From a virus (Duplodnaviria; Heunggongvirae; Uroviricota; Caudoviricetes), in the IMG/VR virus record IMGVR_UViG_2731957841_000002, positions 1 through 9,726 of that record: 9,726 bases of DNA; one strand, written 5' to 3'. The position numbers and the translations under genes are program-made. Below, one piece after another: positions 1 through 9,726 of this stretch. The first letter of the stretch is position 1, and each line of letters starts with the position of its first letter. The notes under the pieces were generated by a model. It was not told where the DNA came from. It worked only from the letters and a program-made list of their open reading frames with translations, and ran no database searches.

Positions 1-1155
1 ATGCTCACCGTTAAGCAGATTGAAGCAGCAAAGCCGAAAGAAAAACCATACCGCCTACTCGATGGTAATGGCCTGTACCTTTATGTCCCTGTGTCAGGGA
101 AAAAGGTATGGCAGCTTCGCTACAAGATTGACGGTAAGGAAAAAATACTGACCGTAGGAAAATATCCGCTAATGACTTTGCAGGAGGCAAGAGATAAAGC
201 ATGGACCGCGAGGAAAGACATCTCGGTTGGCATCGATCCGGTAAAAGCGAAAAAGGCTTCGTCTAACAACAATTCCTTTAGTGCGATTTACAAGGAATGG
301 TACGAGCACAAGAAGCAAGTCTGGTCAGTAGGCTATGCAAACGAACTTGCCAAAATGTTTGATGACGACATTTTACCCATCATCGGCGGTCTTGAGATTC
401 AGGATATTGAGCCGATGCAACTGTTGGAAGTAATCCGCAGATTTGAAGATCGCGGTGCAATGGAGCGAGCCAACAAAGCACGCAGAAGATGCGGCGAGGT
501 TTTCCGTTACGCTATTGTCACTGGTAGGGCTAAATATAACCCGGCACCTGACCTTGCTGACGCCATGAAGGGATACCGCAAGAAGAACTTCCCGTTTCTT
601 CCAGCAGACCAGATCCCGGCATTCAACAAAGCACTGGCAACATTTTCAGGAAGTATCGTATCGCTCATTGCGACCAAAGTTTTACGCTACACAGCCCTAA
701 GAACGAAAGAACTTCGCTCCATGCAATGGAAGAACGTCGATTTTGAAAACAGGATTATCACCATCGACGCCAGTGTGATGAAGGGACGCAAAATTCATGT
801 GGTCCCGATGTCAGACCAGGTGGTTGAACTTCTCACTACGCTAAGCTCAATCACCAAACCAGTCTCAGAGTTTGTTTTTTCCGGGCGCAACGATAAGAAG
901 AAGCCAATCTGCGAGAACGCGGTATTGCTTGTGATCAAACAAATCGGCTATGAAGGCCTGGAAAGCGGTCACGGATTCAGGCATGAATTCAGCACGATTA
1001 TGAACGAGCACGAATGGCCTGCTGACGCTATTGAAGTGCAGCTGGCACATGCCAACGGCGGATCTGTGCGCGGTATTTACAACCATGCTCAGTATCTCGA
1101 TAAGCGCAGAGAAATGATGCAGTGGTGGGCGGATTGGCTTGATGGGAAGGTGTGA
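1..1155 (+). CDS. intS: Tyrosine site-specific integrase, P4 family (IntS-like)
   Basis: 384-aa ORF. N-terminus MLTVKQIEAAKPKEKPYRLLDGNGLYLYV fits the P4-integrase arm-binding domain pattern. C-terminal catalytic region has GHGFRHEF (His/Arg) and RGIYNHAQY (candidate Tyr nucleophile). Symbol assigned from memory of E. coli IntS; not verified. Confidence 0.9.
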   Translation: MLTVKQIEAAKPKEKPYRLLDGNGLYLYVPVSGKKVWQLRYKIDGKEKILTVGKYPLMTLQEARDKAWTARKDISVGIDPVKAKKASSNNNSFSAIYKEWYEHKKQVWSVGYANELAKMFDDDILPIIGGLEIQDIEPMQLLEVIRRFEDRGAMERANKARRRCGEVFRYAIVTGRAKYNPAPDLADAMKGYRKKNFPFLPADQIPAFNKALATFSGSIVSLIATKVLRYTALRTKELRSMQWKNVDFENRIITIDASVMKGRKIHVVPMSDQVVELLTTLSSITKPVSEFVFSGRNDKKKPICENAVLLVIKQIGYEGLESGHGFRHEFSTIMNEHEWPADAIEVQLAHANGGSVRGIYNHAQYLDKRREMMQWWADWLDGKV

Positions 1156-1158
1156 GGC

Positions 1159-1218
1159 ATTAGCGCAAGACGAATCGACACCTTCGCCAGTTTTGAGTTT
1201 TTTTTGCGCTAATTTTTT
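1159..1218 (+). terminator. Candidate intrinsic terminator after integrase gene
   Basis: 10-bp inverted repeat ATTAGCGCAA (1159-1168) / TTGCGCTAAT (1204-1213) followed by a T6 run (1213-1218). The enclosed loop is long (35 nt), so the call is weak. Confidence 0.3.
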
Positions 1219-1252
1219 GCCACAATCATGCTCCAGGCAATGAAAGCAAGCT

Positions 1253-1275
1253 GATGGTAGGTTATGATTACCATC
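1253..1275. promoter_or_regulatory. Inverted repeat GATGGTA-N9-TACCATC upstream of acyltransferase gene (candidate operator or RNA hairpin)
   Basis: Perfect 7-bp arms at 1253-1259 and 1269-1275, about 33 bp upstream of the ATG at 1308, at the GC-content transition into the AT-rich cargo gene. Confidence 0.2.
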
Positions 1276-1307
1276 TAATATTTATTCTTAAATAAGATGA
1301 GTATAGC

Positions 1308-2402
1308 ATGACCCTAAATAATAAAAACCTTGACATTCAAGCGCTAAGGGCGGTAGCCATAATAATGGTTATTCTACAACATTATAGAAATAGATTACCT
1401 TCGCCAGATTGGTATTTGAGCAGTTTTAATTACGTTAATTATTGGGCTGGAGTTGATATATTTTTGGCTATATCTGGATATTTGATGGCTAAAAGCTTAA
1501 CTGGGGAAATAAAAAAAACCGGCAGAACAACTAAAACATTTTTATTATTTTTATCTAAAAGAATATTTAGGCTAGCCCCATGCTTACTTGTATGGGGCAC
1601 CATCTGTATAATAATCTCTTATTTTATGCAACCTTCTTGGGGTGTTTCACCTCTTAAATCATTCACTACGTTATATACATCCCTACTTGGTTATTCTAAT
1701 ATCCACTTCTATAGGTGCGCAGTAACAGCAAATGATTGTGACCAAATGAATGCGGTGACCTGGTCTCTATCTTTGGAATGGCAACTGTATGCTATAATTG
1801 CGGCAATCATGCTGCTCTTTAACAGGAAAAATCTGACGATTATTTTCATATTCATAGTAGCTATTGCATCTTTCCTGCCAGTAACTCAAATGTACTATCA
1901 ATCCATTGGTTGGTGGATTAGACCACAAGCATTCTTTCTGGGAGCAATTATATTCATAACTGGAAGCAAGTGTTATGTAAGCAATAAATGCACAAGACTA
2001 TTTTTTATTATAGTTTGCATTTTTGTTTTACTCGTTGCCCCTCAGCACTTTAACTATAGATTGACATTACCTGCGATTGGTTTTGCTGGTGCATTATTAT
2101 TTCTATGTTTTATTAGTGGTGGTGTGGTAGATAAAAAAGATAATCCAGCATATAAAATGCTGGACTGGATTGGGGATAGATCTTATAGCATTTATCTTTG
2201 CCATTTACCATTACTACATGTAACAAGGGAGGTTTTGAACAAACTCTCCCTTAATACCGTCATTTACGAAAACAAAGTTATATACTTCTTCGCTTTCATT
2301 CTTTTGCTAGTTGTCTTTTCTGATTTATCATATAGATATGTAGAAAAGAAATTTATAAGAACAGGGAGACTAATAATGAGTAAAAATATTTCACCACTAT
2401 AA
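1308..2402 (+). CDS. Integral-membrane acyltransferase, acyltransferase-3 family (Oac/OafA-like O-antigen acetyltransferase candidate)
   Basis: 364-aa ORF, very hydrophobic with multiple predicted TM segments. N-terminal motif LRAVAIIMVILQH matches the conserved R-x10-H region of acyltransferase-3 proteins. Strongly AT-rich relative to flanking genes. Sits in the integrase-proximal cargo slot. Confidence 0.8.
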   Translation: MTLNNKNLDIQALRAVAIIMVILQHYRNRLPSPDWYLSSFNYVNYWAGVDIFLAISGYLMAKSLTGEIKKTGRTTKTFLLFLSKRIFRLAPCLLVWGTICIIISYFMQPSWGVSPLKSFTTLYTSLLGYSNIHFYRCAVTANDCDQMNAVTWSLSLEWQLYAIIAAIMLLFNRKNLTIIFIFIVAIASFLPVTQMYYQSIGWWIRPQAFFLGAIIFITGSKCYVSNKCTRLFFIIVCIFVLLVAPQHFNYRLTLPAIGFAGALLFLCFISGGVVDKKDNPAYKMLDWIGDRSYSIYLCHLPLLHVTREVLNKLSLNTVIYENKVIYFFAFILLLVVFSDLSYRYVEKKFIRTGRLIMSKNISPL

Positions 2403-2576
2403 TTCATCAATATATTCAGGGGGCAAAAACCTACCCTCTGAATATGTATACCCAACACCAACAACGCTATTGTCGTCAAGCTTTATACAGAGATAATCAT
2501 CGTATTGTTTTCCATCGCCGTTCCATAATATAACGTTAATCACAACATCATTTTCTACCAATGCATATTTCATCAT
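2397..2576 (-). CDS. Small hypothetical protein (59 aa), translationally coupled to the upstream fibre gene
   Basis: Hand-translated: MMKYALVENDVVINVILWNGDGKQYDDYLCIKLDDNSVVGVGYTYSEGRFLPPEYIDEL. Its ATG (2576-2574) overlaps the fibre gene TGA (2575-2573) as ATGA. Below the length cut-off of the supplied ORF track. Its 3' end overlaps the convergent acyltransferase stop by 6 bp. Confidence 0.4.
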   Translation of the reverse strand: MMKYALVENDVVINVILWNGDGKQYDDYLCIKLDDNSVVGVGYTYSEGRFLPPEYIDEL

Positions 2577-3475
2577 GCATACTCCCAGATAAGAACAATA
2601 CCATTACCACCGGCGGCTCCGTTATATTGGGTGGCATTATTCACATATGCGTTAGCCCCACCGCCCCCAGCCCCGAAACCAGTCGGCAATACACCGATAC
2701 CCGCTGAGCCGTGTGGATTACCACCCACACCTAATGGACTATTACCTCCGCCACCAGAGATGATAGAGCTAGTCGATATAGCCATGCCAATAGTTGGATT
2801 CTCTCCAGAGAGATTTAAAATATTACCTCCGGATGCTATAGGAATTCCTGGTGAGTTCTGAATAATAGGAGGTACCCCATTTCCTGAACCACCACCAAAT
2901 CCACCGCCAGCGGTTATAGATCCGAAAGAAGATCCACCACCGTTTCCTCCATTACCGTTAACCCCACCAGCTCCACCAGCTCCAATGGTTACAGTATATG
3001 CTGAGTCTAAATTGGTGATACGGGATTTAGCGTAGGCGCCACCTCCCCCTCCACACCCAACTGCAACACTGGTAGAGTTAGTTGTACCAACCCCGCCCCC
3101 TCCTCCGCCTGCGCCTTGGACTTCAACAATAATGCTTTTCGTTCCTGGGGTTGGCGTATAAGTCCCGGATGTCGTTATTGTGCGAACACCAATAAGCCGT
3201 CCTGTTGCAGCCTGCTCTACCGCACTCGCTAATTGCGCAGAGAGCCCCGCAATATCACCATTATCTTTCACATCCTCACTGGTATTATCTGCGATAAACT
3301 GCCCCACAGCAGCCGCCATTGCCGTTCCTTGCCTCAGACCTTTGTTCACCTGAGCACTTGATGCCTTCCCCGATGTAAAGCCAGCAGATAGGACAGGTAA
3401 TGATTCCCAGTCTGTCTGAGTTGTTACGTTAGCACCAGAGCCAGTTGCAAATGGTTTAAATTCATTTTTAGCCAT
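2573..3475 (-). CDS. Glycine-rich phage tail-fibre-like protein
   Basis: Long GGxGG/GNGG tracts typical of phage fibre or collar proteins. N-terminus MAKNEFKPFATGSGANVTTQ. Start chosen at ATG 3475-3473, overlapping the upstream gene stop as TGATG. The ORF track's alternative start at 3493 adds 6 codons but has an SD only 1 nt from the ATG. Confidence 0.7.
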   Translation of the reverse strand: MAKNEFKPFATGSGANVTTQTDWESLPVLSAGFTSGKASSAQVNKGLRQGTAMAAAVGQFIADNTSEDVKDNGDIAGLSAQLASAVEQAATGRLIGVRTITTSGTYTPTPGTKSIIVEVQGAGGGGGGVGTTNSTSVAVGCGGGGGAYAKSRITNLDSAYTVTIGAGGAGGVNGNGGNGGGSSFGSITAGGGFGGGSGNGVPPIIQNSPGIPIASGGNILNLSGENPTIGMAISTSSIISGGGGNSPLGVGGNPHGSAGIGVLPTGFGAGGGGANAYVNNATQYNGAAGGNGIVLIWEYA

Positions 3476-4155
3476 CAGAGTAATTTCCCCCATGCTCCTA
3501 CATCAAAACCACTGATGAATTCGTTATCCATATCAAAACCAAAAAATTTTGAACCTTCCGATGGAGTTTCCACCGAAGGTGTTTCAATGCCACCCGCCCA
3601 CACACCGGCGGCTTTTACTGTGAGATACCCCTGTTTAATTGCCGCAATTAACTCACGCGATACATCTGAAATATCAGTATCAGGAAAGACCCAGACCGAT
3701 ATCGTCATGTCCTGGTTATCGACAATCTGCATTCGCAGCCCGGCTCCTGCTGTCGCCGTGTCAAGAATTGCCGGAAGCGAATCATTCCGTCCGTCCCAGT
3801 TATTAATCGCAATCTTCGCTTTAAGGATGACACGATAAGTTTCATCGCTGAGGTACATGTATCCGGAATCAGGATCGTATGGCCCCTGCCATACACCCTG
3901 ATCATATCCAAGCCCGTCGGTATCCCAGCTGAAATAGATACCTGAGATAGGCTGGCTGACAACACGGCTACGCCCGATCCACAATCCCAGAATGTCAAGT
4001 TGCACACCAACGGCAGAGTCAATATCAAATGCAGTAATCAGCCCTCTGGTGGCAGCCGCAACATCAATAAGCGGCCGGGTCATCAGATCAACATGCGCAA
4101 GAAATTTAGGTTTGGTGGCGTGGTAGTTCGTGATTAGTTCGGTGTATTTGCTCAT
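3475..4155 (-). CDS. Phage tail/baseplate-associated protein of unknown function (possibly DUF2612-type)
   Basis: 226-aa ORF in an operon with the fibre gene. ATGA overlap with the upstream 172-aa gene. Family assignment is from memory and tentative. Confidence 0.7.
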   Translation of the reverse strand: MSKYTELITNYHATKPKFLAHVDLMTRPLIDVAAATRGLITAFDIDSAVGVQLDILGLWIGRSRVVSQPISGIYFSWDTDGLGYDQGVWQGPYDPDSGYMYLSDETYRVILKAKIAINNWDGRNDSLPAILDTATAGAGLRMQIVDNQDMTISVWVFPDTDISDVSRELIAAIKQGYLTVKAAGVWAGGIETPSVETPSEGSKFFGFDMDNEFISGFDVGAWGKLL

Positions 4156-4670
4156 GACTCCACCGTTATAACGATATTTTCCGGGGTACAGGACGCAGAT
4201 TCGTTATATCTGATATCAATGTTTGATGACGACAAAGCCCCCGGGGATTTCCCAATCGTCAGTTCCTGAATATCGTAATAGCGTGCATTACCGGTTTTAG
4301 CGTTGGCATTATCCGGTTGTTTCTGGAACGCAACACTGCGTGCCGTGATGATGTCGCCGCTGACCTTGTTGCGGATCACGATAACGTTATTCCCCCATGT
4401 GGCAGAAGACTGGCTCTGTGCGTTATACGCCAGCGACAATTTTTTATTTGTCGGTGATGTCTTCAGAAGGTTAACGGTAATCGTCCCGCTTTTATCTGCA
4501 TGGAGACTGTGCATCACTTCGCCATCAGCACCGATGGTCATGGTGTTTTTAGGACCGCCCATCGCAACCACAATCCCCTCTTCAGAACTTGCAGAACCGT
4601 ACCCGAGGTCAATCGAACCGGTCGGCCCGGTCAGCGTCGCAGTGACATCCATAAAAGAATAGGTAGACAT
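4152..4670 (-). CDS. Phage tail-module protein, unknown function (172 aa)
   Basis: First gene of the leftward tail remnant. SD-like AAGGGGAAG upstream of the ATG at 4670. Coupled to the downstream gene. Confidence 0.7.
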   Translation of the reverse strand: MSTYSFMDVTATLTGPTGSIDLGYGSASSEEGIVVAMGGPKNTMTIGADGEVMHSLHADKSGTITVNLLKTSPTNKKLSLAYNAQSQSSATWGNNVIVIRNKVSGDIITARSVAFQKQPDNANAKTGNARYYDIQELTIGKSPGALSSSNIDIRYNESASCTPENIVITVES

Positions 4671-4680
4671 TCACTTCCCC

Positions 4681-4773
4681 TTAGCGAACAACGTTAATCT
4701 GTACGTCAGCGTAATGAACCGCGCCTGCAAGTTTTATTGCAGCCTGAATCACCGGAGCCTTAAGGGCGCACAT
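4681..4773 (-). pseudogene. Probable C-terminal remnant of a deleted late gene (30-codon ORF ending ...APVIQAAIKLAGAVHYADVQINVVR)
   Basis: Hand-translated frame reads like a genuine protein C-terminus and stops just before the RBS of the 172-aa gene. Overlaps the end of the truncated cro-like ORF in another frame. Confidence 0.3.
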
Positions 4774-4882
4774 AGATCCCCTTCACCTTGTCTGCGGTAG
4801 CTCCCTGTGTGCATCCAACTGCCTTAGCAAGTGTTGTTTGAGAGATATTCAGTGACTCTCGATATTTTCGTAGGTTGCTCAT
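4760..4882 (-). CDS. Cro-like HTH protein, apparently C-terminally truncated (40 aa)
   Basis: MSNLRKYRESLNISQTTLAKAVGCTQGATADKVKGIYVRP has an HTH (ISQTTLAKAVGC) and is divergent from cI, as cro is in lambda. GGAGGG lies upstream of the ATG. Shorter than typical Cro proteins (about 60-75 aa). The ORF track's 97-aa version runs upstream through the operator region. Confidence 0.5.
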   Translation of the reverse strand: MSNLRKYRESLNISQTTLAKAVGCTQGATADKVKGIYVRP

Positions 4883-4908
4883 ATGCCCTCCATAGTAACC
4901 ATGAAACA

Positions 4909-4937
4909 ATAATACGATATGTACTTTTAGAATGCAA
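4909..4937 (-). promoter_or_regulatory. pR-like promoter for the cro-like gene
   Basis: On the minus strand: -35 TTGCAT (4937-4932), 17-bp spacer, -10 TATTAT (4914-4909). The spacer contains a GTAC-centred motif shared with the pL region, a candidate operator. Confidence 0.4.
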
Positions 4938-4993
4938 ACAAAAAATACATCTTGTGCATGGATGGTTTTAGTACAGAGCGTAATAATAAGGGT

Positions 4994-5653
4994 ATGAAAA
5001 TGAAATGGTATGAACTGGCTAGATCCAGAATGAAAGAGCTCGGCATAACTCAAGAGAAGTTAGCTGAAGAGCTTGGTATGACGCAGGGTGGAATTGGTCA
5101 CTGGTTGCGCGGATCTCGTCATCCATCTCTTGACGAGATTGGTGTGGTGTTTAAATACCTTGGTATTGATAACGTCTCATTCAACCACGACGGTACATTT
5201 TCACCTGTTGGCGAATACTCATCTGCCCCCGTTAAAAAACAATATGAGTACCCTGTTTTTTCTCATGTTCAGGCCGGGATGTTCTCGCCTGAGCTTAGAA
5301 CCTTTACCAAAGGTGATGCGGAGAGATGGGTCAGCACAACCAAAAAAGCCAGTGATTGTGCGTTTTGGCTTGAAGTTGAAGGTAATTCCATGACCGCGCC
5401 AACAGGATCCAAGCCAAGCTTTCCTGACGGGATGTTAATTCTCGTTGACCCTGATCAGGCTGTTGAGCCAGGTGATTTCTGCATAGCCAGACTTGGTGGT
5501 GACGAGTTTACCTTTAAGAAACTGATCAGGGATAGCGGTCAGGTGTTCCTCCAGCCACTAAACCCGCAATATCCAATGATTCCATGCAATGATAGCTGTT
5601 CCGTAGTAGGGAAAGTTATCGCCAGCCAGTGGCCTGAAGAGACATTTAGTTAA
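4994..5653 (+). CDS. cI: CI-type prophage repressor (HTH N-terminal domain plus S24 LexA-like autopeptidase C-terminal domain)
   Basis: C-terminal half nearly matches lambda cI as I recall it: [50 protein letters not shown] (Ser nucleophile), FTFKKL (Lys), plus an Ala-Gly cleavage site in QAGM. N-terminal HTH domain is unlike lambda. Start placed at ATG 4994 (AAGGG upstream) rather than the TTG at 4952 in the ORF track. Confidence 0.9.
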
Positions 5654-5684
5654 CAGCCTCACCACTCTAAAACACACAACAATA

Positions 5685-5713
5685 ACCCGACCTTAGCGTC
5701 GGGTTTTCTTTTT
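5685..5713 (+). terminator. Intrinsic terminator downstream of cI
   Basis: Stem ACCCGAC (5685-5691) / GTCGGGT (5698-5704), 6-nt loop, then TTTCTTTTT (5705-5713). Confidence 0.6.
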
Positions 5714-5778
5714 CCAAAATATAAACCCATTAAATACAAAGCGTTATAAAAAACTAATTATATTTAGAACATTTTGTA

Positions 5779-5807
5779 TTGACTCGATAAAGTACAAATC
5801 GTACTAT
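5779..5807 (+). promoter_or_regulatory. pL-like early-left promoter
   Basis: -35 TTGACT (5779-5784), 17-bp spacer, -10 TACTAT (5802-5807). The downstream transcript start region ATCAGCAGGACGCACTGACC matches the lambda pL transcript start as I recall it. Confidence 0.5.
5791..5805. promoter_or_regulatory. Candidate repressor operator (palindrome AGTAC-N5-GTACT) overlapping the pL -10
   Basis: Perfect 5-bp inverted arms. Related AGTAC/GTACT motifs recur in the cro-cI intergenic region (4921-4925, 4970-4974). Confidence 0.3.
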
Positions 5808-5846
5808 TTAGCCATCAGCAGGACGCACTGACCACCATGAAGGTGA

Positions 5847-5877
5847 TGCTCTTAAAAATTAAGCCCTGAAGAAGGGC
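5847..5877 (+). promoter_or_regulatory. nutL-type antitermination site (boxA TGCTCTTAA plus boxB hairpin GCCCTGAAGAAGGGC)
   Basis: boxB (5863-5877) is identical to the lambda nutL boxB. boxA (5847-5855) differs from lambda CGCTCTTAA at its first base and resembles the rrn-type boxA TGCTCTT. Spacer is AAATTAA as in lambda. Confidence 0.7.
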
Positions 5878-6049
5878 AGCATTCAAAGCAGAAGGCTTTG
5901 GGGTGTGGTGAAGGGTTCATGGATGGGAATATGTCGCACGTAAAGCGGCGAGGCCTGCGGAACTATTGCCGAATTGAAGTCGGCCGAAGCAGGTCGAAAT
6001 GGGTCTCCCACCTACCACACCACCAAAGCTAACTGACAGGAGAATCCAG

Positions 6050-6253
6050 ATGGCAAAGCAATCAAAACCATCACCTACACCTGAACAGGTTCTAAAAGCA
6101 TTCACTGACGCAGCAATGCAGAAAAACACCGTGGAAGAGCTTAAACAGGCGTTCGCCAAAGCGTGGAAGATGCTCGAAGGAACACCGGAGCAGCACAAAG
6201 CGCAGGACGTTTACAACATCAGACGAGACGAATTAGAAGGAGCGGCTGCTTAA
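6050..6253 (+). CDS. Hypothetical small protein (67 aa) in the position lambda N would occupy; not N-like
   Basis: AGGAGA RBS and ATG context match the lambda N start region as I recall it, but the protein (MAKQSKPSPTPEQVLKAF...) has no arginine-rich motif. The ORF track's upstream extension from 5999 lacks an RBS. Confidence 0.6.
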   Translation: MAKQSKPSPTPEQVLKAFTDAAMQKNTVEELKQAFAKAWKMLEGTPEQHKAQDVYNIRRDELEGAAA

Positions 6254-6636
6254 TGGCACATTCGATTACTGTAAGACTAAACAAACCCGCAAGAGAGTTT
6301 CAGGCCGGGGAAAATATCGGATTCAACATCCGTGCTGGCGTTCAGTATTACGATCGCCAGACAAAAAAGAAAGAATGGACAAACTACAGCGCCGTTGTAT
6401 TTGCCAAGCCAGGAGCGCAAGCGGATTACTACCGTAGTGTTCTTGTTGAAGGTGGCATTGTGGAAATTACCGGAGAAAACATCAGGGTTGATGTTTATCA
6501 GGGGCAAAATGGTCAATCAATCACTCTTGAATTACTGAATGCAAAGATTGGATTTGCAACTTCAGGAAACAGCCAACAGCAGCAAAGTAGCAATCATCAA
6601 AATCATCCTGAATACGACGATTCAATTCCCTTCTAA
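6253..6636 (+). CDS. SSB-like single-stranded DNA-binding protein (short form, 127 aa) with conserved acidic C-terminal tip
   Basis: C-terminus ...PEYDDSIPF resembles the E. coli SSB tip DFDDDIPF, preceded by a Q-rich linker. The N-terminal ~100 aa is compatible with an OB fold (KEWTNYSAVVFAK, VEGGIVEITGE). TAATG stop/start overlap with the upstream gene. Confidence 0.7.
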   Translation: MAHSITVRLNKPAREFQAGENIGFNIRAGVQYYDRQTKKKEWTNYSAVVFAKPGAQADYYRSVLVEGGIVEITGENIRVDVYQGQNGQSITLELLNAKIGFATSGNSQQQQSSNHQNHPEYDDSIPF

Positions 6637-6659
6637 AGTAGCAAAATAAGGATTCCATT

Positions 6660-6953
6660 ATGCCAGCGCCTCTGTATGGTGCGGATGACCCGCGCCGCTG
6701 TTCCGGCAATTCCGTATCGGAGGTGCTGGATAAATTCAGAAAAAACTACGACCTGATAATGTCGCTACCGCAGGAAACGAAAGAGGAAAAGGAATTTCGT
6801 CATTGTATATGGCTTGCAGAGAAAGAAGAGCGCGAGCGAATTTACCAGACATCAATCCGACCATTCCGCAAAGCCACATATACCCACTTCCCTGAAATTG
6901 ACCCGCGCCTGCGTAATTACCGCTCACGCTATGGCGCTATCAGTAATGACTGA
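6660..6953 (+). CDS. Hypothetical protein (97 aa)
   Basis: AAGGA RBS 7 nt upstream of the ATG. Operon context. No recognisable domain. Confidence 0.6.
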   Translation: MPAPLYGADDPRRCSGNSVSEVLDKFRKNYDLIMSLPQETKEEKEFRHCIWLAEKEERERIYQTSIRPFRKATYTHFPEIDPRLRNYRSRYGAISND

Positions 6954-6963
6954 GGAATTAACA

Positions 6964-7254
6964 ATGAAAACAATGAAGCTAAACATCGACCTCGGAAAAT
7001 ACGTTATTACCGGAACCAAACACGACCTGATTCTTAGTGAAATAGGAATTATCAAAGAAGGTGAGAATGCAGGGAAAGAAACACTAAGTCGTATCGGTTA
7101 TTACAGCAAGTTTGAGCATCTGGTTAAAGAGTTATGCAACCGTGAAATTCTGTTATCTCAGGCGCAGACGTTACAGGATATTCAGCAGCATATCGAGACT
7201 TTATGTGTGTCACTTAGCATGGCTATTGACCAGTTCGTGGAGAGTAAATCATGA
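6964..7254 (+). CDS. Hypothetical protein (96 aa)
   Basis: GAGGAA RBS upstream of ATG 6964. The ORF track's longer version from 6814 overlaps the preceding gene and lacks an RBS. Confidence 0.6.
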
Positions 7255-7415
7255 GAGGACTTGCATACAATCCCGGCATTCTTCCGGCAGAAATGATTAT
7301 TCGCCAACGCGTAAAGCCAATGCCATCGAGAGAGGAATTGCTTAAGAGAAATTCTTTTCCGTCAGTAAATCAAAACAAATATCTGAATGCGATGTTGCGG
7401 AGTGGGAAAAAATGA
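7251..7415 (+). CDS. Hypothetical small basic protein (54 aa), translationally coupled at both ends
   Basis: Hand-translated: [58 protein letters not shown] overlap with the upstream gene stop and ATGA overlap with the downstream gene start. Below the ORF-track length cut-off. Confidence 0.35.
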
Positions 7416-7963
7416 AACAAATGTCACTAATTGAGATGGATGGTTTTCTGAAAGATAAATGCATCCCAAGTGATTTAAAGGTTAACGAAACAAACGCTGA
7501 ATATCTGGTGCGTAAATTTGCTGAAGCGGAGGCCAAGATTTCGGCTCTGTCCGAAGACCAGCAGAGAGCGATTGAGTCAATTAAGCAGGCTGATGCAGCT
7601 GTTAAGTTGGCACACGAGAAGTTTTCGGCGCTTGCGGCGGAGAATGCGGTAATGCTCGAAACTATTGAAGCCGTTCGCAGTGTTGCGGATAACTCCAGTG
7701 GAATTGCCGGATGGCATTTGAATGGCGATATCGCCACATGGGAAGAGATTCTTCCTGAAATTAACGATATCGAAACCCCAGCCACCGATGCTTTCCTGGC
7801 TGAAGTACGGGCGCAGGGGGTAGAGATGTACGCAGATAACCTCGACAACGTAGCAGACGACGCAGAACGAGGTGGTTTTGATTATGCCGTTAAGTTTCTA
7901 CGCAGTGAAGCGTCTAGTGTACGTTTGTTCGCCGACCAGCTTCGCAAAGGAGGCAACCAGTGA
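7412..7963 (+). CDS. Hypothetical acidic protein (183 aa)
   Basis: Operon context. GTGA overlap with the downstream gene. The antisense 168-aa ORF over the same region is low-complexity and judged spurious. Confidence 0.65.
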
Positions 7964-8484
7964 GCAAGATTGACTATCAGGCACTGCGTGAGTTAGCAAA
8001 ACAGGCAACACAGGGTGAATGGGTCGCATTTATTTCGCCGGGCAAATACGGCACGTACGCCGTACACACACCAGGTGATAATCATCACGGAGATATTGTC
8101 GACTGGCCAGGATTCGACGAACAGAAAAACGCAGAGAACAACGCTCGTTATATCGCAGCTTTCAACCCTGAAGTAGTGCTGGCACTGCTGGATGAACGGG
8201 AAAGAAACCAGCAATACATAAAACGCCGCGATCAGGAGAACGAGGAAATTGCGTTAACGGTAGGGAAGTTGCGCGTTGAGCTTGAGGCAGAAAAACAGCG
8301 GGCAAAGGATCTGTTTATGGAAAATGCTCGGCTTAAGTCAGGTATAGCCGGTCTGATACACCTCGGTATTCGATATGCAGATGTTGAGGTCATGAAAATT
8401 GCTGGAGATGCCCAGCTTTCTACCCCATGCACTGACAGCATCATAAACAGCATTGCAACAGGCATTCGCATCAAAGGAGAGTAA
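7960..8484 (+). CDS. Ead/Ea22-like early protein
   Basis: N-terminus [21 protein letters not shown] matches the conserved N-terminal signature of Ead/Ea22-like lambdoid early-left proteins as I recall it. GTG start with AAAGGAGG RBS. Confidence 0.75.
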   Translation: MSKIDYQALRELAKQATQGEWVAFISPGKYGTYAVHTPGDNHHGDIVDWPGFDEQKNAENNARYIAAFNPEVVLALLDERERNQQYIKRRDQENEEIALTVGKLRVELEAEKQRAKDLFMENARLKSGIAGLIHLGIRYADVEVMKIAGDAQLSTPCTDSIINSIATGIRIKGE

Positions 8485-8686
8485 TATGAGCAGGAATACG
8501 GGTTTGTAAAAGATAACGCTTGTGAAAATGCTGAATTTCGCGTCGTCTTCACAGCGATGCCAGAGTCTGTAGTGTCAGATGATGACCGTACTCAAACATC
8601 GGGTTGAGTATTATCTTACTGTTTCTTTACATAAACATTGCTGATACCGTTTAGCTGAAACGACATACATTGCAAGGAGTTTATAA

Positions 8687-8968
8687 ATGAGTATCAATGA
8701 GTTAGAGTCTGAGCAAAAAGATTGGGCGTTATCAATGTTGTGCAGATCCGGTGTCTTGTCTCCATGCAGACATCACGAAGGTGTTTATGTAGATGAAGGT
8801 ATAGATATAGAGTCGGCATACAAATATTCCATGAAGGTTTATAAGTCTAATGAAGACAAATCCCCATTCTGCAATGTGCGAGAAATGACTGATACCGTGC
8901 AAAATTATTATCACGAGTACGGTGGAAACGATACTTGCCCTCTCTGTACAAAACATATAGATGATTAA
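8687..8968 (+). CDS. Hypothetical Cys-containing small protein (93 aa), AT-rich
   Basis: AAGGAG RBS 8 nt upstream. Five Cys including a CPLC pair. Preceded by a 200-bp intergenic region and followed by tandem terminators, a moron-like arrangement. Confidence 0.6.
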   Translation: MSINELESEQKDWALSMLCRSGVLSPCRHHEGVYVDEGIDIESAYKYSMKVYKSNEDKSPFCNVREMTDTVQNYYHEYGGNDTCPLCTKHIDD

Positions 8969-8986
8969 ACCAAATATTACATAACA

Positions 8987-9015
8987 ATCCTCGCACTCGC
9001 GGGGATTTCTTTTAT
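8987..9015 (+). terminator. Intrinsic terminator (first of tandem pair)
   Basis: Stem ATCCTCGC / GCGGGGAT (one G-U wobble), 4-nt loop ACTC, followed by TTCTTTTAT. Confidence 0.5.
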
Positions 9016-9018
9016 CTG

Positions 9019-9044
9019 AACTCGCTACGGCGAGTTTTGTTTTA
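9019..9044 (+). terminator. Intrinsic terminator (second of tandem pair)
   Basis: Stem ACTCGC (9020-9025) / GCGAGT (9030-9035), loop TACG, followed by TTTGTTTTA. Confidence 0.55.
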
Positions 9045-9056
9045 TGGAGACAAGAA

Positions 9057-9401
9057 ATGTCAGATTTGGCTATGAAGGTTTTGAAATGGCAATCGACTAG
9101 CGATGTCAGTATCAGTAGCGCAACTCTTGCCTCAATCGCATGTGGACTGAAAAAGAATATCTATGGTCATCACTTCGGCGCTCCCCATGACGCAGCAGAC
9201 TTTCGGCGATGCGTTGCACTTGTTGAGCAGATTCCAGAAATCAGAGATTCATTCAACAAGGTTGCAAAGCGCGTTCCGGCATTCAAAGGAATCCTCAACG
9301 AATGGGATTCCCTCGTTGCTCTGTTGAAGTCTGAAATGAAGATACACGGAAACAAAGCACCAGAGACTTACAGAAGAATCAGCGAGCTACGCAAGGACTA
9401 A
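9057..9401 (+). CDS. Hypothetical protein (114 aa)
   Basis: GGAGA RBS upstream. Lies between the terminator pair and torI. A short hairpin (GCCTCA...TGAGGC, 9407-9425) follows it. Confidence 0.6.
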   Translation: MSDLAMKVLKWQSTSDVSISSATLASIACGLKKNIYGHHFGAPHDAADFRRCVALVEQIPEIRDSFNKVAKRVPAFKGILNEWDSLVALLKSEMKIHGNKAPETYRRISELRKD

Positions 9402-9525
9402 CCACCGCCTCACACTCGATGAGGCCTGTTCATTTCTCAAGATATCCAGACCTACCATTGCTGCATCAATGCGGCTTTTTATTGCCTGATTTGCAGGTTC
9501 AATTCCATATTCGGAGATAGCACTC

Positions 9526-9726
9526 ATGCAACACGAACTACAACCTGATTCACTGGTTGATTTGAAATTCATCATGGCTGATACTGGCTTCGGTAAGACC
9601 TTCATCTATGACCGGATTAAGTCCGGCGACCTGCCTAAAGCCAAAGTTATCCACGGACGAGCAAGATGGTTATATCGTGACCATTGTGAATTCAAAAATA
9701 AGCTCTTAAGCCGCGCCAATGGGTAA
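9526..9726 (+). CDS. torI: Excisionase / recombination directionality factor, TorI-like
   Basis: 66-aa protein MQHELQPDSLVDLKFIMADTGFGKTFIYDRIKSGDLPKAKVIHGRARWLYRDHCEFKNKLLSRANG matches TorI of E. coli KplE1 as I recall it. GGAGA RBS upstream. The window ends at its stop codon. Confidence 0.9.
   Translation: MQHELQPDSLVDLKFIMADTGFGKTFIYDRIKSGDLPKAKVIHGRARWLYRDHCEFKNKLLSRANG

Follow-up and report, generated by a model that had tools for sequence, protein, structure and literature searches.

A lambda-type nutL site ahead of an apparent N–erf deletion junction in a lambdoid prophage remnant of Escherichia coli

What becomes of a lambda-type nut site when the gene that opens behind it is not N? 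The question is raised by a stretch of Caudoviricetes DNA of 9,726 nt (IMG/VR record IMGVR_UViG_2731957841_000002, positions 1 to 9,726; hereafter the window), in which a nutL-like element is followed, at the position where lambda carries N, by an open reading frame (ORF) for a 67-aa product. A sequence-only reading of the window had proposed that the nut site is that of lambda, that the N slot holds a non-N protein, and that the element either depends on N supplied in trans or carries its nut site as a relic of recombination. Here we examine the nut site, the sequence that follows it and the element in which it lies.

The nut site and the immunity region

The features that define the site and its promoter are as follows (window positions throughout, unless stated otherwise):

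4798–4882 (−): remnant of a cro-like gene, its first ~29 codons; homology to the intact cro-like genes of phage Louie and the Br54 prophage ends at 4795–4798
4958–5653 (+): cI-type repressor gene with HTH_3 and Peptidase_S24 domains, matched over its full length (Pfam)
5684–5705 (+): intrinsic-terminator-like hairpin after cI (hairpin prediction)
5779–5807 (+): pL-equivalent, sigma-70-like promoter, TTGACT and TACTAT with a 17-nt spacer (promoter scan and alignment to lambda pL)
5847–5877 (+): nutL as a whole (BLAST, alignment, fold and motif counts)
5847–5854 (+): boxA, TGCTCTTA, with 7 of 8 bases as in lambda
5855–5862 (+): nut spacer, AAAATTAA, identical to the spacer of lambda nutL and containing AUU, the NusA contact
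5863–5877 (+): boxB, GCCCTGAAGAAGGGC, identical to the boxB of lambda nutL

All the parts expected of a nut site are in place. On the transcribed strand a boxA of the CGCTCTTA type lies upstream of boxB, the spacer between the two contains AUU, and boxB itself is a 15-nt hairpin with a 5-bp GC-rich stem and a GAAGA loop, which is also present in the minimum-free-energy fold of the leader. The site occupies an early-transcript position behind a repressor-controlled promoter, with cI immediately upstream: aligned to lambda pL +1, the transcript of the pL-equivalent would start at ~5814, ~34–64 nt upstream of nutL. BLAST matches 5813–5907 (pL start, boxA, spacer and boxB) to lambda 35583–35489 with 98.9% identity over 95 nt, and 6016–6053 (the N ribosome-binding site and ATGG) to lambda 35394–35357 with 100% identity over 38 nt. 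The sequence-only reading, which took ~90 nt from the transcript start and ~35 nt around the ribosome-binding site and ATG as those of lambda, was thus accurate, and in the alignment to the lambda pL–nutL–N region that it called for, boxA and boxB are conserved as it had read them. The only difference within the nut site is the first base of boxA, T in the window and C in lambda. This base varies among close relatives (C, G or T in the alignment); the published boxA–spacer of lambda nutL is cgcucuuaaaaauuaa, and the boxA of rrn operons, ugcucuuua, begins with the same base as that of the window (PMC2724277).

The boxB sequence occurs once in the window, against 0.04 copies expected by chance, and the same search found neither a second nut site nor a nutR in the window. 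A boxA-like 9-mer at 1813 was rejected as a second nut site: it falls within the acyltransferase gene, and its occurrence is no more than chance predicts. An Rfam scan of the whole window (E ≤ 1) returned no match, and hence no nut or N-leader family. Judged by its sequence, the nutL of the window is a genuine lambda-type site and is intact.

The immunity region around it is only in part that of lambda. The C-terminal half of cI has 92.8% DNA identity to lambda cI (BLAST); the part of the repressor gene upstream of 5243 and the promoter/operator region have no lambda match at the DNA level. Because the N-terminal half of the repressor and the promoter/operator region are unlike lambda in this way, the repressor is probably heteroimmune to lambda, with a different immunity specificity. 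From a cursory operator search we note a motif, AAAGTACA, within CGATAAAGTACAAATCG (5786–5802) between the −35 and −10 of pL, that recurs inverted at pR/pRM (4915–4930); it may be an operator half-site of this immunity type. Beyond the cro remnant everything has been deleted, nutR included.

The N leader and the junction behind it

Downstream of boxB the window contains:

5878–6049 (+): N leader (alignment of leaders, folds)
6038–6043 (+): N Shine-Dalgarno, AGGAGA, within the leader
6050–6053 (+): N start codon ATG plus G, base 6053 being the apparent deletion junction
6050–6253 (+): 67-aa fusion ORF, the N Met followed by Erf residues 136–201 (tblastn, PHROG)

The leader consists of two conserved stem strands (~5894–5911 and 6016–6036) around a variable central cassette (5914–6004). 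In the predicted folds of both the window and the lambda leader, which share the boxB hairpin and a long stem, the flanks GGCUUUGGGGUGUG and CACACCACCAAAGCU pair as the base of that stem; the ~35 conserved nt around the ribosome-binding site are therefore its 3′ strand together with the Shine-Dalgarno. We take this long-stem leader to correspond to the structured, RNase III-sensitive N leader. At least three leader alleles can be told apart: that of lambda, a Louie/HK97/933W type and a Br54 type (187 nt). They differ in the central cassette alone, as though, judging by the predicted folds, cassettes had been swapped within a conserved RNA stem.

The window carries the second of these alleles. 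In a five-way alignment (window, lambda, Louie, Br54 and the ET776 prophage remnant) positions 5740–6053 are base-for-base those of Louie and of ET776, and the likeness to Louie extends through cI, pL, nutL, leader and N start (99.0% over 4795–6053). Positions 5890–6053 are 100% identical to phages Louie, CL707 and vB_EcoP-683R2, the last two having been compared over this interval only, and 5896–6028 are 97% identical to HK97, 933W and many Stx phages. By alignment, then, the leader of the window is a common allele found upstream of lambda-type N. That the central leader (5914–6004) has no counterpart in lambda had been seen correctly in the sequence-only reading and is confirmed by BLAST and alignment; the idea that the leader marks a mosaic junction linked to the loss of N has to be given up, as the same allele precedes lambda-type N in Louie, CL707 and vB_EcoP-683R2.

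The leader also contains a 44-aa ORF with a TTG start (5898–6032, +), Arg-rich (VKRRGLRNYCRIEVGRSRSK) and annotated as a hypothetical protein in Louie. It is probably no gene. As a substitute for N it was rejected on four counts: it matches no Pfam or PHROG family, it is located inside the leader stem, it is missing from the lambda and Br54 leader alleles, and in Louie it coexists with a real N.

The break with N-bearing phages comes at a single base. Matches of the N type stop at 6053 and matches of the erf type start at 6053, across hundreds of genomes (5426 complete E. coli genomes were searched). Base 6053 is the last that the window has in common with its N-bearing relatives and the first that it has in common with erf, a microhomology of 1 nt; a single shared G at the junction indicates illegitimate recombination. 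After ATGG, lambda, Louie, Br54 and ET776 continue with ATGCACAAACACGCCGCCGCGA, which encodes MDAQTRRRER; read from the same ATG as GATGCACAAACACGCCGCCGCGA, it gives MDAQTRRRERR, the arginine-rich motif of lambda-type N, and in Louie this ATG opens a complete lambda-type N (Pfam N36). The window lacks N coding sequence after ATGG, in contrast to lambda, and continues with CAAAGCAATCAAAACC..., a sequence from within erf. The erf frame of mEp213 reads ...CAG CAG AAC GCA GTA GCA AAG CAA TCA AAA CCA..., and the window matches it from GCA onward. From 6053 the window is 97.2% identical over 1600 nt to the Br54 prophage from its erf onward (L002 4795 onward), and 98.5% identical to mEp213 erf. The interval missing relative to Br54, the closest intact relative with both N and erf and thus the one against which the deletion was measured, is L002 2856–4794, or ~1.9 kb: N, two hypothetical genes and erf codons 1–135.

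The 67-aa ORF does not match lambda; tblastn aligns its product with the Erf proteins of mEp213 and Br54 at 98.5% identity. On the PHROG 1097 (Erf-like) profile it covers positions 187–250 of 251. The Pfam ERF domain (PF04404) spans residues 5–143 of the 201-aa Erf protein, and since the fragment comprises residues 136–201 it lacks essentially the whole annealing domain; it gives no ERF match, and full-length mEp213 Erf, run as a control, matches at 5.6e-44. By these matches the ORF is an erf-derived fragment and not a functional member of the ERF family.

Nor is N to be found elsewhere. The mark of the N family, an N-terminal arginine-rich boxB-binding motif, is absent from the 67-aa product, which has two Arg, and from the other pL-operon ORFs. 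Neither N36 nor N_peptide matched any pL-operon ORF, the 67-aa product included, in Pfam; the Louie and lambda N proteins, as positive controls, match N36 at ~1e-26. A tblastn search of all window frames with the N proteins of lambda, Louie, Br54 and mEp213 found nothing (best E = 0.06), and a hidden N gene was rejected after this search and after Pfam, NCBIfam and PHROG scans of the pL-operon ORFs found none. It had been claimed that the 67-aa product has no arginine-rich motif and that no ORF in the window looks like N, and both statements stand. The claim that the N slot holds a non-N protein stands in half: the ORF is not N, but neither is it a distinct gene, since in it the ATG of N continues, in frame, into the final 66 codons of erf.

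We consider it very probable that nutL was orphaned by a deletion that joined the N ATGG to the middle of erf in a decaying prophage, and that the in-frame fusion is an accident. In the ancestor, lambda-type N would have stood directly after this leader. An illegitimate deletion would then have joined the fourth base of N (ATGG) to erf codon 136, with the loss of ~1.9 kb at 1 nt of microhomology, taking N and all early genes up to mid-erf and, by analogy with lambda, also the terminator after N. The 67-aa ORF would be what this left behind: the N ribosome-binding site and ATG, then the C-terminal tail of Erf. Of the two alternatives that the sequence-only reading had offered, that of a recombination relic is the one supported, given that N-type identity ends and erf begins at 6053. 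What speaks against an accident is that the junction lies exactly after the N start codon and in frame; the frame would be hit by chance in 1/3 of cases, the position more rarely still.

There are two other ways of explaining the junction itself. The 67-aa ORF might be a selected small protein, for example an Erf C-terminal peptide with a modulating role in recombination or with the neighbouring SSB-like protein as its binding partner, expressed from the translation signals of N. The in-frame fusion fits this, as do the strong AGGAGA Shine-Dalgarno 6 nt upstream, the calling of the ORF as a gene on 22 contigs, and a stop codon that shares bases with the SSB-like start codon (TAATG), an arrangement also seen in intact erf–ssb operons. 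The overlap, however, is inherited from erf; the 3′ end of a normally placed erf matches the ORF at 98.5% identity, which leaves the ORF no sequence of its own; the ERF domain is absent bar its last few residues; and neither the junction nor a stand-alone version of the ORF occurs in any of 256 matching phage records or of the 5426 complete E. coli genomes. We regard a selected protein as very unlikely. The junction might also have been created by assembly or chimera formation: no junction-spanning sequence was found in the 5426 complete E. coli genomes (RefSeq) or in 50,697 phage records. Against this, public assemblies contain 22 contigs with a record of exactly this 67-aa protein, and of these we fetched eight loci from eight different samples. 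All eight carry window 5841–6075 exactly; one, a 426-kb metagenome scaffold (L006), contains the entire 9726-nt window at 100% identity (L006 3952–13677), and the other seven are 99.86–100% identical to the window over the overlap. A junction that recurs, context included, in eight assemblies, each from a different sample, is therefore no artefact, and that explanation can be regarded as refuted, its residual probability being negligible.

One of these copies has an IS21-family element (IstB and transposase) inserted in the SSB-like gene (L008 5483–8055, at about window 6584–6597), which indicates that decay is continuing in the lineage.

The prophage remnant and its relatives

The intS ATG opens the window and the stop codon of a torI-type excisionase gene closes it; these two genes bound the element:

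1–1155 (+): intS-type integrase, first gene of the element, 161 nt downstream of tRNA-Arg(CCT) argW (profile and context)
9526–9726 (+): torI-type excisionase (recombination directionality factor, RDF), last gene, adjoining dsdC (PHROG 66 excisionase; its counterpart in TUM9812 is annotated torI)

In the 426-kb scaffold yfdC and argW precede the element, and dsdC, dsdX, dsdA and emrYK follow it. The tRNA gene lies at L006 3716–3790 and intS at L006 3952–5106, immediately downstream and in the same orientation; the TorI-type RDF is at the opposite end, beside dsdC. From its genes and flanks the element is a 9.7-kb decayed lambdoid E. coli prophage at the argW/dsdC locus, the position of KplE1/CPS-53. 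The KplE1/CPS-53 remnant of E. coli K-12 presumably keeps gtr, tail-fibre and nin-region genes and is without the present cI–pL–nutL block. The two share their chromosomal site, a size of ~10 kb and an unusual recombination-module layout described for KplE1 (PMC2951348), in which intS, at attL, points into the element and torI closes it at the other end.

Decay has gone far. The remnant is without replication, late and most tail genes and without nutR, and it has no packaging or lysis genes. The cro-like gene is cut at ~4798. Another scar lies near 4290 (~4287–4293): strain PI24 matches 1–4293 at 100%, and it matches 4287–4767 ~8 kb away in the same prophage, from which it follows that tail/baseplate genes between the two have been lost in the window. 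The deletion of N looks like one of several random scars of this kind. A further scar lies at 4767–4797, where 30 nt (4768–4797) separate the tail-tube region from the cro remnant.

At the same argW/dsdC locus in E. coli TUM9812 (L014) a 3.6-kb remnant keeps only intS, an acyltransferase gene, three small ORFs and torI; there the recombination module and the acyltransferase have outlasted everything else. The acyltransferase, an Acyl_transf_3 membrane protein encoded directly after intS (1308–2402, +), is intact both here and in TUM9812 and may be a lysogenic-conversion (O-antigen acetylation) gene.

The N-bearing relatives show what has been lost. Louie, CL707, vB_EcoP-683R2 and Br54 differ from the window in keeping full-length N and early genes between N and the recombinase gene; the Br54 prophage has the same erf–ssb–abc2 block and, in addition, a lambda-type N. 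vB_EcoP-683R2 is flanked by csc sucrose genes, which suggests integration in the argW region.

An independent parallel is the remnant in E. coli ET776, which is 100% identical to the window over 1256 bp (4798–6053), including the T in boxA. Its cro is truncated within 1–3 nt of the same point, and its N has also been destroyed by a deletion. It sits, however, at sbcB and has a recombinase of the Rad52 type rather than Erf, and its N deletion is a different one, from about codon 34 to cIII (~1.7 kb relative to Louie). N codons 1 to ~33, arginine-rich motif included, are kept (ET776 L005 6251–6360) and are annotated as an N pseudogene in RefSeq. As the two deletions differ, N has been lost with nutL kept at least twice on this immunity background. 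The shared cro breakpoint could go back to a common ancestor, with recombination afterwards, or mark a hot spot of breakage. Past that breakpoint (window 4795–4800; L005 4996–5000) the window continues with sequence from upstream of the tail-tube gene and ET776 with a DnaB fragment.

A similar arrangement has been built deliberately. In engineered pL–nutL cassettes (e.g., for recombineering, with an N–kil deletion) a gene replaces N at its ATG; there, as here, pL, nutL, the N leader and the N initiation codon drive a downstream recombination gene. Such cassettes carry complete genes, whereas the window has a truncated Erf tail and lies in a natural chromosome.

A nut site without N

The pL operon that remains behind the junction comprises, among others:

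6253–6636 (+): SSB-like gene, normally found after erf (PHROG 44, E = 1.8e-28; same order in mEp213 and Br54)
6660–6953 (+): Abc2 anti-RecBCD protein (Pfam PF11043, E = 6e-65)
8687–8968 (+): ea8.5, a pL-side gene preceded by several ea-region genes
8986–9007 and 9018–9037 (+): tandem intrinsic-terminator-like hairpins with T tracts, between ea8.5 and orf114/torI

The tandem hairpins are those that the sequence-only reading had flagged as terminators at 8987–9044. Two relatives that carry N, mEp213 and the Br54 prophage, have the segment around them (8981–9059) as well, with 94.9% conservation. A third terminator-like hairpin lies at 9460–9475; all three are upstream of torI, and a promoter scan found no consensus promoter between the tandem terminators and torI. 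Most of the remaining operon (6050–8968) is upstream of the first predicted intrinsic terminators and, as far as terminators of this type are concerned, would therefore need no N to pass one.

When cI is inactivated, pL transcripts should still carry boxA and boxB, and Nus factors could bind the nut RNA. Lacking N, the polymerase would presumably stay unmodified and sensitive to termination; transcription would cover the erf remnant, ssb and abc2 through to ea8.5 and would then mostly halt at 8986–9037, before torI. In KplE1-type prophages excision is switched by expression of the RDF alone (PMC2951348), and the loss of N would consequently help to lock the remnant in place.

Classical lambda genetics established that nut sites act in cis and that N is diffusible. 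The nutL of the window should therefore still respond to a lambda-type N from a co-resident phage: we see it as an orphan relic that probably keeps this response, and polymerase modified by N in trans might then read through the tandem terminators ahead of torI. A dependence on such N, as the sequence-only reading had it, is mechanistically possible; nothing in our analysis supports a selected function.

A functional role is nonetheless conceivable. The orphan nutL could act as a sensor, N supplied in trans causing read-through of 8986–9037 and expression of torI, with TorI and constitutively low IntS then excising the element, either as helper-dependent mobilization or as loss coupled to induction. 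The element looks as a trans-activated one would: the nut site is intact in all three parts, with a boxB that folds, cI is full length, pL is present, and intS and torI are intact as well. The position of the terminators just upstream of orf114/torI and the switching of KplE1-type excision by the RDF alone also agree with such a role. Donors are not rare, near-full-length lambda-type N being present in 322 of 5426 complete E. coli genomes (lambda-type nutL in 854). Yet we find no sign of selection, the fetched copies being near-identical over their overlap with the window and so offering no divergence on which relaxed selection on nutL could be tested. With replication, packaging and lysis genes gone, an excised element would mostly be lost; pL is kept silent by a probably heteroimmune repressor, so that N in trans would matter only during SOS; the N deletion resembles the other, apparently random scars; and Rho-dependent termination may dominate at the locus. 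We think a sensor unlikely. A related reading, in which the remnant is a listener that would express TorI and excise, or bring its Ea, SSB and anti-RecBCD genes to full expression, solely while a phage whose N has lambda specificity is active in the same cell, is a long shot. Were it true, the fate of the remnant would be coupled to induction of the helper, and its nut RNA might compete for N.

The preferred account, accidental deletion in a decaying prophage, is of a familiar kind, a regulatory site orphaned as a prophage decays. The nutL is that of lambda, the KplE1 locus is well studied, and the leader allele, the repressor and the erf–ssb–abc2 block are common in sequenced phages and prophages. 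New is only this N–erf deletion allele, absent from complete RefSeq E. coli genomes and present in several sequenced samples. For annotation the lesson is one of care: where an unfamiliar small ORF stands behind a conserved regulatory site, a deletion may have put it there, and no gene need have been replaced. The independent loss of N in two remnants with an identical immunity region also points to a recurrent route by which prophages are grounded, the cis site, repressor and recombination module surviving after N has gone. If orphan nut sites do respond to helper N in nature, they would provide a simple route of cross-talk between resident remnants and active phages.
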